Of a DNA stretch of 64,000 bases, positions 47,434-56,320 are shown in pieces. Position 1 is the stretch's first letter. Every line of letters starts with the position of its first letter. The translations under genes and the position numbers were made by a program. The notes below the pieces were generated by a model, which had not been told where the DNA came from, searched no databases, and was given only the letters and a program-made list of their open reading frames with translations. This DNA comes from Lytechinus pictus (taxonomy: Eukaryota). The stretch spans positions 11,844,001 to 11,908,000 of the forward strand of contig NC_087250.1 of the NCBI RefSeq assembly GCF_037042905.1, written 5' to 3'.

Positions 47434-48867
47434 GTAAGTTTATTTGTATACAGATGGTAGAGAAAATCTACTCTTTCTTCTCATGTGGTTTCAAAACAAT
47501 GAGAGTCTAGTAGAAATGCCCCTTTTCCCAATGGGTGCTCTATGATTTTATTTTTTTTTTTTAAATAGGAATGATAGGGAAAAGGATGGGGTGATGTCGG
47601 AACCCCCTGAAGGGGTAGCTGACGATGTCTTAGCACTTCCGTATAATTATGTAGCTGATAGAGAAAACCATGCTTCTTCTCCAAGTGGTTTAAAAAAATA
47701 GAAATGTCTTTATTACAAAGCAGAAACACCTTCTTTCCTAAATTAGGATACAAAAATTGTAAATTTTCTAAGAAATAGGCAAACTAGGCAAAAAGAGTTG
47801 GGCGATTTCGGCAGCTCCCTGAGGGGGTAAGCTCCAATGTTCCAGGTATTTCTTTATATGTATGTGATAGAGAAAAGCTAAATTGTTCCTCTTCAAGTGG
47901 GGCTCAAAAAAGCACGATATTATAATAGTAGAACTACGTATAGGGGTGGGTTATCTGCGAAGGTACTTGTGGGACTATGCTTTAAGATACCAGAAAGTCA
48001 TTGAATGTAACATGCACAGTAAGACCTCCTCTAATTTTCCAAGAGGTTTCATAAACATAAAATTTGCTTCGGTATAATTTATAGAAAATGCCTTTTGCCC
48101 TTATACCCATCTATGTAATATATACATTTATATTGCAACGTACATAACATGTCACACCAACAGAGACGATGCCAGACCGATTAAGGCTATTGTAGTCTCT
48201 TGTCTCTTAAAATGCATGCCACCGGTCGCATTGTAGTCAATATAATTAATGTGACCAAGACGCGGTGGTTGCATTTTCGTCTCATTTCATCGCAATAAAG
48301 TGTAATTCATTTTTAAAGTATTTGCCCTTTATCTAAGCAAATCAAGACATTAATATTGTCATGAATCATATCGATATTCCCGTTTCTATATCCTCTTTCT
48401 TGTCAATGCTGCATTAGTTGTTGATATTTATGATAAAATAGATAGTTATCAATGCACATGCAAATTTTTGACAAAAAACATGTACATTTGGGCATGAATT
48501 TTTTTAAAAAAATATTATCCGGAATTTCACACACACATACACACACACACACATATATAAATAATATATATATATATATATATATATAAATATAACGCCT
48601 ACCATTGTTCTCTTCATTAATTTCTTTACAATATTTAAAATAAAAAGAGTTGCCAAAGCTGTTGTACATGTATAACTTTACACATTTGTATACTTTCTCC
48701 CATACGTGTACTGTATCAAAGCAATAGCTTTGATCCAGCTGAGGCATGGCGGCTTGTCATTGTTCAAAACCCACCTTCACCCGACAAAGGAAATTATAAT
48801 TGGTATAGTGTCGAAAATCTGTCTATCTGACGGTCAATCGGATCGGGGTCGCCCTAGCCACTAACCC

Positions 48868-48939
48868 GTCTCTGTGGTCTAGTGGTTAAGGCACCGGCGT
48901 TCAAAGCTGGGGGCCCGGGTTCGATTCCCGGCAGGGACA
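48868..48939 (+). tRNA. tRNA-like gene, anticodon TCA (opal-suppressor-like; function unknown)
   Basis: Acceptor GTCTCTG/CAGGGAC, D GTCT/AGGC, anticodon CCGGC-GTTCAAA-GCTGG, T CCGGG-TTCGATT-CCCGG; T6 terminator directly after. Confidence 0.6.
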
Positions 48940-49268
48940 TTTTTTCGGCATCACCAATTTATCCAAAGGGTAGATAGCTCTGGGGAACCTTGATTTAAGC
49001 TACGCCTACCATTGTTCTCTTCATTAATTTCTTTACAATATTTAAAATAAAAAGAGTTGCCAAAGCTGTTGTACATGTATAACTTTACACATTTGTATAC
49101 TTTCTCCCATACGTGTACTGTATCAAAGCAATAGCTTTGATCCAGCTGAGGCATGACGGCTTGTCATTGTTCAAAACCCACCTTCACCCGACAAAGGAAA
49201 TTATAATTGGTATCAAAATCTGTCTATCTGACGGTCAATCGGATCGGGGTCGCCCTAGCCACTAACCC

Positions 49269-49340
49269 GTCTCTGTGGTCTAGTGGTTAAGGCACCGGCG
49301 TTCAAAGCTAGGGGCCCGGGTTCGATTCCCGGCAGGGACA
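49269..49340 (+). tRNA. tRNA-like gene, anticodon TCA, second copy
   Basis: Same as 48868-48939 except one G->A change giving a C-A mismatch in the anticodon stem; T6 terminator. Confidence 0.55.
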
Positions 49341-49615
49341 TTTTTTCGGCATCACCAATTTTTCCAAAAGGTAGATAGCTCTGGGGAACCTTGATTTAAG
49401 CTACGCCTACCATTGTTCTCTTCAGTAATTTCTTTACAATATATATATAAATATATATATATGAATATACGGAAGAGAATATTGTACGCAAAACGGTAAA
49501 ATATCCTCAAAACCTGATATACTTAGCTTTTCAACATGCAATTATCAGACTAAGATGAACGTTGAAACGACGCAATATCATTATAAAAGAACCGACAGAG
49601 ACAATGGACGCTTTA

Positions 49616-50802
49616 AGCCCCTTTCACAATTGACGTACGACCATTTGCGACCTTTTGGTCGTGCGACAGGCTGCAACAGGCATCAATCGCTAGTCATCTC
49701 ATAAGATCGCACAGAAGCTTTCACAGTTGCAACAGCTGTCGTACAACAAAAACAACCAGTAAACCCCGTTGCACGAGTAAGTCGCATATGCTCTTATTGT
49801 GCTCGTGCGATCACATGCGAGTGTTGCACGAGGGATTGCGAGCGGAACGGTCGCATACATGCGAATGAAACGGTAGTGCAATGTTGTAAGCCGTTGCGAT
49901 CGGTCTTGCAACAGTCTTATGGCCCATATTTTTATCGCAACCAGTCGCAAGACAGGTCTCTGTACATGTAGGTCGCTTGCACATGTGCAAGTGTTGCACG
50001 ACCTCCAGTCAAGTAAATGCGACTACTTAGTTGTACCACCTCTCGCACCAAGTCGTACAACGTTGAACAACACTCGCACGATGATCGCCCGACCGATGGT
50101 ACGACCCCGGGTACGGCCTGATGCGAGTGAATCGATCGTATTTGATCGCGTTCGGATTTTGAACATGTTCAAAGTTCAGATGTGACCAGTCACGACCACC
50201 TCGAGTTCGTGCGACCGTCTACAACGACTGCGAGTGCTCGCAAGACACCAAGAGATCGATCGTGCAACAACAAGAAAAAAACTGTTGCAGGCGGTCGTAA
50301 ACTGGTCGGACGTCAATTGTGAAAGGGGCTGAACGGTCGCATACATCCGAATGCAACGGTAGTGGAATATAGTAAGCCGTAATTTCGATCGGTCTTGCAA
50401 CAGTCTCATATTATCGCACCCAGTCGCAAGACTGGTTTCTGTAGGTCTCCAGCACATGTGCAAGTGTTGTACGACCTCCAGTCGACTAAATGCGACTATA
50501 CTTAGTTGTGCCACCTCTCGCACCAAGTCGTACAACGTTGAACAACACTCACACGATGATCGCCCGACCGATGGTACGACATGTTGCGAGTGAATCAATC
50601 GTATTTGATCGCGTTTGGATTTTGAACATGTTCAAAGTTCAGATGCGACCAGTCACGATCACCTCCGACCACATCGAGTTTGTGCGATCGTCTACAACGA
50701 CTGCGAGTGCTCGCAAGACACCAAGGGATCGATCGTGCAACAACAAGAAAAAACTGTTGCAGGTGGTCGTAAACAGGTCGTACGTCAATTGTGAAAGGGG
50801 CT
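49616..50802. mobile_element. Non-autonomous TIR transposon (Harbinger-like) with a duplicated right half
   Basis: TIR AGCCCCTTTCACAATTGACGTACGACC; right TIR occurs twice (ending 50331 and 50802); TTAA context; shares the TTTGAACATGTTCAAA palindrome with 11895-13644. Confidence 0.8.
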
Positions 50803-51095
50803 TAACGGCGAGCTGTGATTTGCTGTCAAGGTGACCAAGTTAGGCTTAGTATTTTGTTTTGTTATTATGTGTTCTTTTACTCAATTTGCTTCAATTTACG
50901 GCTGTTTACTGAGCCTAATTTGTTTACCTTGCCAGCCAATCACTGTTCGTCGTATAGCATCCACTGTGTCAGTCTTGTCTATTTCGGTTTTAGTACTTAG
51001 CGTGCTGTTCATTCAGGCGATTTTAAAATATCAAACTTAAACTTTTGAGGCGATTATTAGGATTTATGTTTTAATATGTCTATACTTTTTTTCAG

Positions 51096-53370: not shown

Positions 53371-55654
53371 TATGGCACGCCCATAGGGAAACAATTAAAC
53401 ATATATTTCACTTGAAAACAGTGGTTCTCTTCCACTAAACCATTTCACTCAAAGAAATATATATTTCACTTTTCCAAAAAATATATTTCACTTTTCAAAA
53501 AATATATATTTCACTTTTCAAAAAATATATTTCACTTTTCAAAAAAAATATATTTCACTTTTCAAAAAAGTATATTTCACTTTTCAAAAAAATATATTTC
53601 ACTTTTCAAATAAATATATTTCACTTTTAAAAATGTATTCCACTTTATCAAAAAAATATATTTCACTTTTCCAAAAAAGTGTATTTCACTTTTCAAAAAA
53701 ATATATTTCACTTATCAAAAAAATATATTTCTCTTTTCAAAAAATACATGTTTCACTTTTTCACAAAAATATAATTCACTTTTCAAAAAAATATATTTCA
53801 CCTTTCAAAAAAAAATATATTTCACTTTTCAAAAATAATATATTTCACTTTTTCAAAAAAATATATTTCACTTTTCAAAAAAATATATTTCACTTAAAAA
53901 AAAAAAAATATATTTCACTTTTCCAAAAAATATATTTCTTTTTTCAAAAACTATATTTCACTTTTCCATAAAAATATGATTCACTTTTCAAAAAAATATA
54001 TTTCACTTTTTCGACGAAGAATCTTTTCAATTGTTACATTTTAATTTTGAGAGAAAACAAATCATTCACTTTTGTTGGATAACATATGTGGCTGCCGTAT
54101 TAGACCGTGCGTAAAATACATCTATCTATCTGTCTATCTACCTACATGATATATATATCTACCTATCTCTCTGCCTATTTTATATCTATCTGTTTAGATC
54201 TTTCTATCTATCTATCCATCTATCTGTCTGTCTATTTATCTATCTATCTGTCGAACTATTTATTTTTCTACCTATCTGTCTAATAATTATCTGTTTAAAT
54301 ATGTCTGTCTATCTATCTACGAATATATATGTCTGTCTGTCGGTCTGTCTCTCTATCTTTCTATCTAATATCTATTCATTTATTTGAATATGTCTGTACA
54401 TTTGTTTATTTATCAATCAATCTATCTATCTTTCTATCTATCTGATGATTTATCTGGCTGTTTAAATGTCTGGATATCTGTCTTTCTATCTATCTGCCTA
54501 TTTATCTTTATCTATCTATCTATCTATCTATCTATCTGCCTAATACATATCTATCTGTTTAAATATGTCTATCTTTCTATCTATCGATCTATCTATCTAT
54601 CCATCTATCTATCCATCTATCTGTCTGTCTTTTTATCTATCTATCTATCTAATATCTATTTATTTCTTTTAATATGTCTGTATATTTGTTTATTCATCAA
54701 TCAATCTATATATCTATCTATCTATCTATCTATCTATCTAATGATTTATCCGGCTGTTTAAATGTCTGTATATCTGTCTTTCTCTTTATCTATCTATCTA
54801 TCTTATGTCTATCTGTTCAAAATATGTATGTCTATCTGTATGTCAATTTTTTATCTTTCAATCTTATATCTATTAATCTGTTTAAATAATCATGTCTGTT
54901 TATTTGACTGTTTATCTATTTAATATGTATCTATCAAATCTGCTTAATATGTTATTCTATCTGTCTATCTATCAATAAATATATCAATATATTTTCTCTC
55001 TATCTATATATCTATCCATCTATTTATCTATCTGCGTATGTACCTATGTATCTATCTGTCTCTGAATATATGTGTATATCAAATATGATATCATAATCAC
55101 CGTTATCATCATCATCATATTTGCCATCAATCATTATCAGCATCATCCTCCTCATCATCGTATTTTTTATCGTCAATCAATATCTATCTAATGTCTATAT
55201 CTGTCTATCTATCTAATACCTATTTATCTGTTTATATCTATCAGACATAATTATTTAAACAAATGAGTGGATATAAGTATGAAAGATAAATAGACAGACA
55301 GATAGACATACATATTTAAACAGAATATAAGAAAGATAGATAAATAGATTGATAGATGGATGGAGAGATAAATGATAGGTGGATAGATTAATAGAAGATA
55401 GATAGATAAATATCAAAAGATAGATAGATATAAACAGATAAATACTATAGTAGGTATATATGGATAGAGAGAAAATAGATCGATATATTTATTGATAGAT
55501 AGATAGAATAACATATTAAACAGATTTAATAGATATTAAATAGATAAACAGACAAATAAACAGACATGATTATTTGCACAGATCAATAGATATTAGATTG
55601 AAAGATAAAAGGTAGACATGCAGATAAACATACATATTTTGAACAGATAGACTT

Positions 55655-55689
<35 letters not shown>

Positions 55690-56320
55690 AGATAAATAGG
55701 CAGAAAGATAGAAATTAAGACAGATATACAGACATTTAAACAGCTGGATAAATCATTAGATAGATAGATAGATTGAATGATAAATAAACATATATACAGA
55801 CATATTAAAAGAAATAAATATATATTAGATAGATAGATAAATAGATAAAGAGACAGACAGATAAATATACAGACATATTTAAACAGATAATTGTGAGACA
55901 GATAGATAGAAAAATAAATAGTTCGACAGATAAATAGATAAATAGGCAGAGAGATAGATAGATAGATATATCATGTAGGTAGATAGATAGATGAATTTTA
56001 CGTACGGTCTAATACGGCAGCAGCATGTGTTATCCAAAAGTGAAAGGATTTGTTTTCTCTCAAAATTAAAATGTAACAAGTGAAATGATTCTTAGTCGAA
56101 AAAAGTGAAAAGTGAAATATATTTTTTATATATTTTTTTGAAAAGTGAAATATATTTTTTTTGAAAAGTGAAATATATTTTTTTGAAAAGTGAAATATAT
56201 ATATTTTGAAAAGTGAAATATATTTATTTAAATTTCTTTGAGTGAAATGGTTTAGTGGAAGAGAAACATATTTTTTCAAGTGAAATATATATTTCATTGT
56301 TTCCCTATGGGCGTGCCATA
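53371..56320. mobile_element. Foldback-type non-autonomous transposon, IS3EU-like ends
   Basis: TIR TATGGCACGCCCATAGGGAAACAAT; 6-bp TSD CACGCA (53365-53370, 56321-56326); kb-long inverted arms built of a ~21-bp minisatellite and (TATC)n. Confidence 0.8.

Follow-up and report, generated by a model that had tools for sequence, protein, structure and literature searches.

Two tRNA-like sequences stand in tandem in the stretch of Lytechinus pictus DNA analysed here (64 kb; hereafter the window), and their anticodon, UCA, matches the stop codon UGA. Do they encode an opal suppressor, as an earlier note on this DNA had proposed, or do they have another origin? We judge, with a probability of about 80%, that both sequences are copies of a pseudo-tRNA module derived from tRNA-Glu and carried in a young, high-copy, satellite-like mobile repeat. 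The stop-codon anticodon is most likely an accident and no sign of a working suppressor, because the modules are two of about 2,000 near-identical copies in this young repeat.

ARAGORN called exactly two genes in the 64-kb window, both modules on the forward strand with anticodon tca at position 34: copy 1 at 48868..48939 (anticodon at 48901-48903) and copy 2 at 49269..49340. Both aligned end to end with Rfam RF00005 (model positions 1-71 of 71), at 58.9 bits (E 3.5e-10) for copy 1 and 51.2 bits (E 4.7e-08) for copy 2, and they alone in the window reached the gathering score of 29; for comparison, the genome's true tRNA-Glu genes reach 59.4-62.2 bits. Copy 1 forms an intact cloverleaf with stems of 7/4/5/5 and a variable region of 4 nt in the Rfam alignment. 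Copy 2 is identical to it at 71/72 positions, the exception being a G>A change at 49310 (tRNA position 42) that breaks the C28-G42 pair of the anticodon stem, a site flagged as a non-canonical pair in the Rfam alignment. The cloverleaf is based on covariance-model alignment; free-energy folding alone gave none for the modules and did no better than on shuffled sequences (z -1.35 and -1.20). Two stretches of copy 1 on the forward strand, TGGTCTAGTGG (48875..48885) and GGTTCGATTCC (48918..48928), resemble an A box and a B box, and are identical to the aligned letters of true tRNA-Glu genes. A run of six T, resembling a Pol III terminator, abuts the discriminator base of copy 1 (48940..48945), and a second T6 run follows copy 2 (49341..49346), both on the forward strand. 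ARAGORN, RF00005 and the sequence itself thus confirm the coordinates and anatomy that the earlier note had given for two 72-nt TCA cloverleaves with an immediate T6.

Natural UGA readers with anticodon UCA are tRNA-Sec and, where UGA has been reassigned, tRNA-Trp/Cys(UCA). ARAGORN labels the modules tRNA-SeC because of the anticodon only. Unlike tRNA-Sec, which has acceptor/T stems of 9/4 or similar and a long variable arm, the module has the 7/4/5/5 shape and a 4-nt variable region, so the view that it is not tRNA-Sec stands. Unlike tRNA-Trp/Cys(UCA), it has a Glu-type body and a G at position 32, and it is borne by a repeat. Its anticodon loop (G32 U33 U34 C35 A36 A37 A38) has the standard 7 nt, with U33 present and position 37 occupied by a purine, but position 32 is usually a pyrimidine, which makes G32 atypical.

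The modules lie in tandem because both sit in a 401-bp repeat. The local array, on the forward strand at 48595..49442, comprises two full 401-bp units and the first 43 nt of a third (TRF period 401, 2.1 copies, 97% matches). It is adjoined at its 5' end by an (AT)n microsatellite (48553..48594; TRF period 2, 21.5 copies) and at its 3' end by a (TA)n-rich run found by TRF (49439..49469), which is the usual tail or target in the family. The repeat-borne character suggested earlier was borne out on the scale of the genome: the family has about 2,000 copies in 812 Mb, with a unit of about 401-406 bp. An exact search of the genome with the anticodon arm as anchor gave 1,770 matches, against 0 for the reversed pattern as control, and a looser anchor search gave 2,012. 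T5 or longer followed the module in 1,965 genome copies, a count conditional on an exact match of the preceding 22 nt, and 1,165 copies were letter-identical over a 77-nt string (the 72 nt plus T5). When the genome was searched for the 3' part of the module with T5, the A68 form was found in 1,889 copies and the G68 form in 76; the window modules have the G68 form and belong to this minor subfamily, the G at raw position 68 giving a U4-G68 wobble in copy 1.

Copies of the family range from fragments shorter than a unit to an array of 44 units (17.9 kb, period 406), and all are within 2-3% of the family majority. In the 44-unit array, 30/43 units are identical and the others differ by 1-2 bases, and its end structure is that of other inserts. 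Head-to-tail units of high inter-unit identity, 2.1 in the window and up to 44 elsewhere, place the family with satellite or tandem repeats. Neither this family nor any suppressor-type tRNA repeat of sea urchins turned up in a literature search; the Repbase catalogue may already include the family.

The source of the module was sought among the genome's own tRNA genes, of which a pattern search found 52 of true tRNA-Glu type; all five tRNA-Glu loci scanned with ARAGORN as comparators were called Glu. The module is identical to tRNA-Glu(TTC) at 49/72 positions and to tRNA-Glu(CTC) at 45/72. Identity with tRNA-Glu(TTC) is unbroken at positions 6-21 and 45-66, which include the whole A-box and B-box regions and bear out the resemblance of the D and T arms to tRNA-Glu reported earlier. 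Like the tRNA-Glu genes, the module is 72 nt long, with identical D-arm 5' half, T arm and boxes and similar Rfam scores. Unlike them, it has a rewritten acceptor stem and D-stem 3' strand with pairing kept, and a replaced anticodon arm, and it exists in about 2,000 copies inside a repeat against 52 tRNA-Glu genes. Acceptor pairs 1-71, 2-70 and 5-67 (raw numbering) differ from tRNA-Glu(TTC) on both sides with pairing kept, and all four pairs of the D stem are kept despite three changes. These changes suggest that the founder was not simply decaying: either its ancestor was under structural constraint, or it came from an unsampled tRNA. Judged by its sequence, the module descends from a nuclear tRNA-Glu gene of this genome.

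The anticodon arm reads CCGGC-GTTCAAA-GCTGG in the module and CGTGG-TTTTCAC-CCACG in tRNA-Glu, with UCA in place of UUC. The founder would have retained the tRNA-Glu D-arm 5' half, the T arm and both internal promoter boxes, while its anticodon arm may have been re-registered by about one base, bringing U-C-A (bases 2 and 3 of the Glu anticodon plus A37) to positions 34-36. Such a re-registration would make UCA an accident of the founder, subsequently copied along with the whole unit and presumably with no selection maintaining it in the copies. Older relatives with another anticodon were considered among three odd-looking loci; these share one foreign insertion in the anticodon loop and do not represent an older lineage.

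If the copies were instead genes for a functional opal suppressor, made by Pol III, CCA-tailed, charged and serving the host or an element with in-frame UGA codons, extra conservation of the anticodon and the stems would be expected to accompany the consensus. UCA is indeed the consensus anticodon: TCA was present in 71/74 dispersed rows (the rest being TCT twice and TGT once) and in 48/50 full-length modules. The full cloverleaf, U33 with A37, intact acceptor stem, tRNA-Glu promoter boxes and immediate T run likewise accord with a suppressor. However, TCA owes its place as consensus to the youth of the family alone, and its conservation is uninformative, since copies depart from the majority by 2-3% throughout the unit, with the tRNA part as diverged as its flanks. 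Measured against the majority base, mean divergence was 2.2% in the tRNA part (over the 46 positions free of anchor constraint) and 2.3% in the anticodon loop across 38 dispersed loci (124 HSPs), a non-random sample anchored on the exact anticodon stem and leaving out the G68 subfamily by choice of region. In the rest of the unit the same 38 loci diverged by 2.0% (positions 346-401), 2.7% (99-200), 3.7% (201-273) and 6.1% (1-98). At least one pair was broken in 21/50 full-length modules, and one-sided stem changes in these 50 broke a pair in 30 cases and kept it in 5, with 0 compensatory doubles. Thus, we found no evidence of purifying selection on stems or anticodon among the copies (2.2% against 2.0-3.7% in the flanks; 0 compensated). 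The earlier note had asked whether TCA and stem covariation are conserved genome-wide: the anticodon is, in that the consensus (71/74) is TCA and not a sense anticodon, but stem covariation is not.

Other observations also count against a suppressor. G32 with A38 is an unusual loop context by the pyrimidine-32 rule, the anticodon that Glu-tRNA synthetase would need is lost with no other identity set evident, and more than 1,000 identical, efficient copies against 52 tRNA-Glu genes would be expected to be harmful. The unit has no ORF needing read-through. The 16-nt complement of the module 3' end plus CCA had 0 genome matches on either strand, so that at this stringency no LTR element primes with the module and there is no CCA-tailed retro-copy. 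Precedent points the same way: in Kojima 2024, the 'suppressor' predictions all came from a mobile element (PMC10886601). The opal suppressor proposed earlier is therefore not upheld, lacking extra conservation, compensated stem changes and a CCA-tailed copy or primer site; the alternative in the earlier note, a tRNA-like promoter or processing module, may hold. Given G32/A38, the non-Glu anticodon and the copy number, a charged, decoding role is unlikely, and we regard a functional suppressor serving host or element as extremely improbable.

The way in which the unit is inserted bears on what kind of repeat carries the module. We surveyed 97 inserts in 61 loci. Their 3' ends fell at unit position 40-50 in 40, at 90-98 in 41 and elsewhere in 16, and 66/81 of the canonical 3' ends ran straight into a TA run. 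The window array stops at the family's usual 3' end, in keeping with the 81/97 inserts elsewhere that end at unit position ~43 or ~98. The junction string TTCACACAATATATATATA had 99 exact genome matches, 97 of them with the family's own upstream sequence; the window's 3' junction deviates from it, with the variant ...TTTACAATAT that has no CAC. In contrast to the 3' ends, the 5' ends were scattered across the whole unit, only 5/97 lying within 270-280, where the tRNA part starts, and the others over 1-375. An AT run was present at the 5' flank in 25/97 inserts elsewhere in the genome, and 43/97 insert 5' ends adjoined other unit sequence, mostly an inverted partner, head-to-head pairs being frequent. 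Fixed 3' ends with (TA)n and variable 5' truncation are features of LINE-dependent insertion (TPRT). No autonomous or LINE partner sharing the terminal string TTCACACAATATATATATA was seen, 97/99 genome matches being the family itself. In 22 inserts checked for target-site duplications, the longest shared strings were 4-9 nt and none stood at both junctions, a test weakened by the microsatellite flanks. A larger parent element was also considered; the flanks common to several loci are other repeats, here F1 and F2, in either orientation relative to the unit. F1 is a repeat family likewise adjoining (AT)n, and terminal inverted repeats bound F2, an element of ~1 kb.

Some of these features recall tRNA-derived SINEs (SINE2), which, as described in the SINEBase paper (PMC3531059), share with the family A/B boxes, a repetitive 3' tail, 5'-truncated copies, youth and high copy number. 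In an ordinary tRNA-derived SINE, mobilised by a LINE, the tRNA head drives Pol III transcription of body and tail. A tRNA-derived part with intact boxes, a microsatellite-like 3' tail, 5' truncation and many copies of low divergence would all suit this explanation. Unlike SINE2 as described there, the family has a tRNA part that is internal and complete, is followed at once by T6 and sits in tandem units (PMC3531059). It lies 100-155 nt from the 3' end with 270 nt of conserved unit sequence upstream, the T6 directly after it would prevent reading into a body, insert 5' ends are unenriched at the tRNA start (5/97), and as many as 44 units stand in a row. The family is almost certainly not a SINE, and the earlier statement that the module is not a SINE head, supported by the absence of a 5'-end pile-up at the tRNA start and the T5-T6 that follows at once, agrees with this.

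Tandem arrays could alternatively be LTR-internal-LTR chains of a Helenus-type TRIM. As reported, Helenus/TRIMp3 resembles the family in having up to thousands of copies, tandem arrays and copies that tRNA finders falsely call tRNA genes, 'suppressor' included (PMC10886601). Both preferred 3' ends of the family finish ...CACA, and 5' ends cluster weakly around unit position 145-165, in front of a TG; a TG...CA 'LTR' of ~295 bp with the tRNA-like part inside it would result. However, the 5' ends are not fixed but scattered over the unit, the would-be LTR end is followed by ATATTTAAAT... with no TGG-type primer-binding site, and no target duplications of 4-5 bp were readable in the 22 inserts, where microsatellite flanks weaken the test. 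Neither (TA)n tails nor a choice of two 3' ends separated by 55 nt is characteristic of an integrase. Unlike Helenus/TRIMp3, the family has no LTR architecture, with no fixed 5' end, PBS or PPT found; one of its ends is a fixed ...TTCACACA with (TA)n, the opposite end is variably truncated, and it keeps a whole tRNA with a paired acceptor stem and an immediate T6. The six animal phyla reported for Helenus do not include Echinodermata (PMC10886601). We consider a Helenus-type origin extremely unlikely.

We also weighed the module as a working part, and not a passenger, of the repeat, an idea with three versions. The module could be an internal Pol III promoter or TFIIIC site keeping copies open or transcribed; RNase P and RNase Z could cut the tRNA fold, turning array transcripts into unit-length template RNAs; or unit RNAs could be circular, with rolling-circle reverse transcription giving multi-unit inserts. 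The cloverleaf, both boxes and T run of the 1,165 identical copies and the founder's acceptor changes, compensatory relative to tRNA-Glu, would favour a working part. So would the internal 3' end that inserts of every size share, be they fragments or arrays of 44 near-identical units; a template that is circular or one unit long would account for this. There is precedent in Cassandra TRIMs, which are reported to hold a 5S gene in the LTR (PMC10886601; PMC7215508) and to have conserved Pol III promoters and terminators in a mobile element (PMC10886601).

Coverage of the unit by polyA RNA reads was weak, came from both strands and had no discrete ends, and 20 and 14 reads in two runs crossed unit-to-unit joints, as a working part would lead one to expect; genomic tandem copies predict such reads equally. 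Read ends did not pile up at the tRNA borders in these polyA RNA reads. Twenty entries of a sequencing-run look-up, under three organism labels and of presumed kind, contain all or part of the stretch; none is recorded as RNA, which has no bearing on expression. When 921 nt were scanned with Rfam (E<=5), the unit revealed no ribozyme, nor any other structured or processing RNA, mascRNA reaching 19.8 bits against a threshold of 42.5. In addition, the tRNA part is conserved no better than its flanks, with stem mutations uncompensated; the T6 would halt Pol III before any body; 5' ends have no peak at the tRNA start (5/97); and 3' ends lie 100-155 nt past the tRNA, not at the RNase Z site. A working part is thus rather improbable, and we return to the module as a passenger of the repeat.

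As such a passenger, the module would spread with the whole unit by directional copy-and-paste. Its starting point would be one of two fixed unit sites, each with ...TTCACACA as its end and joined to a run of (TA)n, from which copying would extend a variable distance toward the unit's 5' side. Head-to-head pairs would arise because copying often starts on both strands of the self-complementary (TA)n target. The mechanism we prefer would be reverse transcription of a unit or array transcript primed on (TA)n; an almost equal fit is microhomology-mediated copying of DNA where (TA)n tracts have broken. Since more than 1,000 copies have undamaged A/B boxes, acceptor stem and T run, TFIIIC/Pol III probably binds some of them and a short tRNA-sized RNA results.

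A further role can be envisaged. Hundreds of the 1,165 copies might be transcribed by Pol III, processed by RNase P/Z and CCA-tailed, giving a discrete tRNA(UCA) with a function in trans, for instance in certain tissues or stages: it would either promote UGA read-through under some conditions or serve as a tRNA mimic or decoy. We hold this to be very unlikely; if true, an animal would have a nuclear suppressor borne by a selfish repeat. More immediately, about 2,000 of the calls in any tRNA annotation of the genome would be false 'tRNA-Sec/Sup(TCA)' genes, set against 52 for real tRNA-Glu. The carrier itself fails the structural tests run for SINEs and for LTR-type TRIMp3 elements, and combines a complete tRNA gene and its terminator in a satellite-like unit of very recent activity. 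To judge from their letters, the more than 1,000 Pol III promoter sets that it has kept intact may serve as TFIIIC/Pol III sites on chromosomes throughout the genome.

Two tRNA-like modules of 72 nt lie on the forward strand of the window, copy 1 at 48868–48939 and copy 2 at 49269–49340, and were the only two ARAGORN calls in the 64 kb, each with the anticodon tca at position 34. Both matched the Rfam tRNA model end to end (58.9 and 51.2 bits, respectively; gathering score 29) and were the sole Rfam matches at gathering score across the window. The Rfam alignment gave stems of 7, 4, 5 and 5 pairs with a 4-nt variable region; the anticodon loop is G32-U33-U34-C35-A36-A37-A38, and T6 immediately follows the discriminator base in both modules. 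Thus, the observation in the earlier note of two TCA cloverleaf sequences with an immediate T6 was confirmed, while its interpretation was supported in part. The 7/4/5/5 shape and 4-nt variable region also upheld its exclusion of tRNA-Sec, and ARAGORN's 'tRNA-SeC' label is due to the anticodon only. Copy 2 differs from copy 1 by a single change, G>A at 49310, with loss of the C28-G42 pair. Thermodynamic folding neither returned the cloverleaf nor beat shuffled sequences (z −1.35 and −1.20), so the structural claim rests on the covariance model.

The modules are tandem because both sit in a repeat unit, of which the tRNA-like part forms positions 274–345. Tandem Repeats Finder placed an array of 401-bp period at 48595–49442 (2.1 copies, 97% matches), adjoined by an (AT)n run at 48553–48594 and by a TA-rich run at 49439–49469. 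In the 812-Mb assembly of 368 contigs, where the window is C6:11844001-11908000, we found 40 loci on many contigs at 100% identity to a 78-nt query. Exact patterns gave 1,770 matches when the anticodon stem was anchored and the loop left free (reversed control, 0) and 2,012 when the D arm and variable region were anchored and the anticodon arm left free, bearing out the suggestion that the module is repeat-borne. The T arm, acceptor and T5 matched 1,889 times with A at raw position 68 (a plain count along the module) and 76 times with G, the window's form, so the window copies belong to a minor subfamily, with a U4-G68 wobble rather than the majority U4-A68; the full 72 nt plus T5 matched 1,165 times in the A68 form. 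An array on another contig, C2, holds 44 units of 406-bp period over 17,866 bp. There, 43/44 tRNA-like parts were identical, and among 43 whole units 30 were identical, 12 had one base differing and one had two.

We compared the module with true tRNA-Glu-type genes, identified by a pattern combining the module's T arm with a Glu-type loop (52 genes in the genome: 20 TTC, 32 CTC); ARAGORN called tRNA-Glu at all five comparator loci scanned. The module was identical at 49/72 positions to tRNA-Glu(TTC) and at 45/72 to tRNA-Glu(CTC). Its D and T arms had been likened to tRNA-Glu, and this held: positions 6–21 and 45–66 are unbroken identity, covering both promoter-box regions. In the acceptor stem three pairs were changed on both sides with pairing kept, and the 3′ strand of the D stem carried three changes with all four pairs retained. 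These compensatory changes show a founder that was under structural constraint before amplification, or else was derived from another, unsampled tRNA gene. The anticodon arm reads CCGGC-GTTCAAA-GCTGG in the module and CGTGG-TTTTCAC-CCACG in tRNA-Glu. A one-base shift of the arm aligns TCA with the last two tRNA-Glu anticodon bases plus A37, which suggests that the founder's anticodon arm re-registered, giving UCA.

We investigated selection on the tRNA part among copies. In 38 dispersed loci, taken from the first places listed for the anticodon-stem anchor (1,770 matches) and therefore conditioned on an exact anticodon stem, with G68 copies excluded by the choice of regions, mean divergence from the majority base was 2.2% in the tRNA part (46 unconditioned positions), 2.3% in the anticodon loop, and 2.0%, 2.7% and 3.7% in unit positions 346–401, 99–200 and 201–273; it was 6.1% in positions 1–98, which contain alternative ends. 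Seventeen of 50 full-length modules had the modal sequence; all pairs were intact in 29, and at least one was broken in 21. In these 50, changes to one side of a stem broke the pair 30 times and kept it five times, and no compensatory double change was found among them. Among the 74 matches outside arrays that were listed for the D-arm and variable-region anchor, the arm was canonical in 55 and TCA was kept in 71, the exceptions being TCT (two) and TGT (one). The anticodon changed at about the same rate as the rest of the unit, so TCA is the family consensus, its constancy reflecting a young family and not a constrained anticodon. Of the two properties whose conservation the earlier note had wished to see checked, the consensus TCA was present and stem covariation was not. 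Its proposal of a true opal suppressor, which the consensus TCA would suit, is highly improbable, since the anticodon is only as constant as a young family would make it and the stems are uncompensated.

Two polyA RNA-seq runs from 2026 (X23 and X24) were compared with one unit at ≥93% likeness, and of the roughly 11 million records in each run, 81 and 98 reads matched. Both mate orientations were present, in near-equal numbers in X24 and at roughly two to one in X23. Coverage was unbroken through the tRNA part and flanks, 20 and 14 reads spanned unit-to-unit joints, and in neither run did read starts or ends pile up anywhere on the unit. All reads carried A at 48935, as in the majority subfamily of this genome, with a single exception among the 24 reads of one orientation class in X24. 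Family members thus show low-level read-through transcription; polyA libraries do not capture a Pol III product, and these reads are uninformative on one. In X23, 19 reads exit the unit after window position 48627 into a consensus of CACA, an A run and then (AT)n (agreement 0.77); either insert ends of mixed kinds or copies tailed with A-rich sequence may account for them. A permissive Rfam scan found no ribozyme or non-tRNA RNA family in the array. The 16-nt complement of the module's 3′ end plus CCA had no genome match on either strand, hence neither a retroelement primer site nor a CCA-tailed retro-copy was seen. That the module serves the life cycle of the repeat itself is unlikely, though less so than suppression.

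Mode of spread was analysed in 97 collinear inserts from 61 loci, after removal of seven loci that overlapped or were duplicated and of inserts touching a locus edge. Insert 3′ ends fell at unit positions 40–50 (40/97) or 90–98 (41/97), with 16/97 elsewhere. Both preferred ends read ...TTCACACA in most family copies, the window's own units carrying variants of this motif. Canonical 3′ ends ran directly into a TA run in 66/81 cases and several others into (CA)n(TA)n; the exact junction TTCACACAATATATATATA had 99 occurrences, and in 97 the sequence upstream was that of the family itself. The 5′ ends were scattered across the unit, flanked by an AT run (25), other unit sequence (43, in most cases a head-to-head inverted partner) or unrelated DNA (29). 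Inserts measured 23–1,299 bp (median 301) in the sample, and the C2 array, with the same end structure, reached 17.9 kb. The family's spread is probably directional copying that starts at a defined point and stops at a variable one. Copying would often begin at a (TA)n site, which is self-complementary, and from both of its sides. Reverse transcription that uses (TA)n for priming is a candidate mechanism, and DNA copying through microhomology where (TA)n tracts are broken is also compatible. Target duplications were not readable in 22 inserts (a weak test, the flanks being microsatellite) and no partner element sharing the 3′ end was found among genome matches to the junction string, so we only slightly prefer the RNA route. 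A larger composite element was rejected, the flanks common to several loci being other repeats.

Several repeats neighbour these inserts. Three loci on three chromosomes (C3:80144000-80144800, C5:32723300-32724100 and C16:15238400-15239200; L082, L083 and L084) carry the same foreign insertion starting CACAGTGGGCCGGGGCG... in the anticodon loop, at unit position 305; either an interrupted unit was copied onward or an element with a CACAGTG-type end targets the site. A further repeat family, F1 (L066:874-1433, L050:962-1433, L044:971-1433, L067:923-1420), has internal subrepeats of about 190 bp containing ATGCGAGCGCGAAGCGCGAGCTGAAA. It begins exactly at an (AT)n run adjoining inserts of the unit, which suggests that repeats of several kinds accumulate at the (AT)n tracts of this genome. 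An element of about 1 kb with terminal inverted repeats (L006:330-1305; also L013, L061 and L076), TA-flanked and beside unit inserts, has termini TACAGTGCGTAT... and ...ATACGCACTGTA and looks like a non-autonomous cut-and-paste transposon. Within the window, a direct repeat pair of about 472 bp (50024–50808; pieces 88–98% identical), GC-richer than its surroundings, lies just downstream of the array. A large foldback region (53400–56240) of CTAT/CTGT-type and other short repeats has inverted arms of up to 186 nt, with 74–95% complementarity and about 0.4–2.6 kb apart. A minus-strand open frame at 18573–19022 matches a ZU5 domain (E 9.2e-05; 23.1 bits, cut-off 21).

The nearest described systems are mobile elements bearing small-RNA genes. 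As described by Kojima 2024 (PMC10886601), Helenus elements, TRIMs whose LTR contains a tRNA-like sequence, occur in fungi, plants and six animal phyla, a list without echinoderms; copy numbers reach thousands, zebrafish Helenus forms tandem arrays, and in some rust fungi every predicted tRNA-Sup-CTA gene is Helenus. Like Helenus as so described, the present family is a source of false suppressor-tRNA calls. Helenus identity was rejected because the ends are not of the fixed TG...CA type, there is no PBS or PPT, and no short duplications were readable. A tRNA-derived SINE was rejected on the grounds that the tRNA part does not head the element and runs directly into a terminator; that this is no SINE head agrees with the earlier note, only 5/97 insert 5′ ends lying at the tRNA start (positions 270–280). 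With both identities set aside, the family would belong to the broad, known kind 'tRNA-derived repeat', although a carrier built as a satellite-like unit, its fixed 3′ ends joined to (TA)n, may be uncommon. We consider it likely (probability about 0.8) that the module is a pseudo-tRNA derived from tRNA-Glu and carried as a passenger by a young mobile satellite, its UCA anticodon accidental. In practice the family matters mainly as a caution in annotating tRNA genes and as a lead for mobile-DNA researchers.
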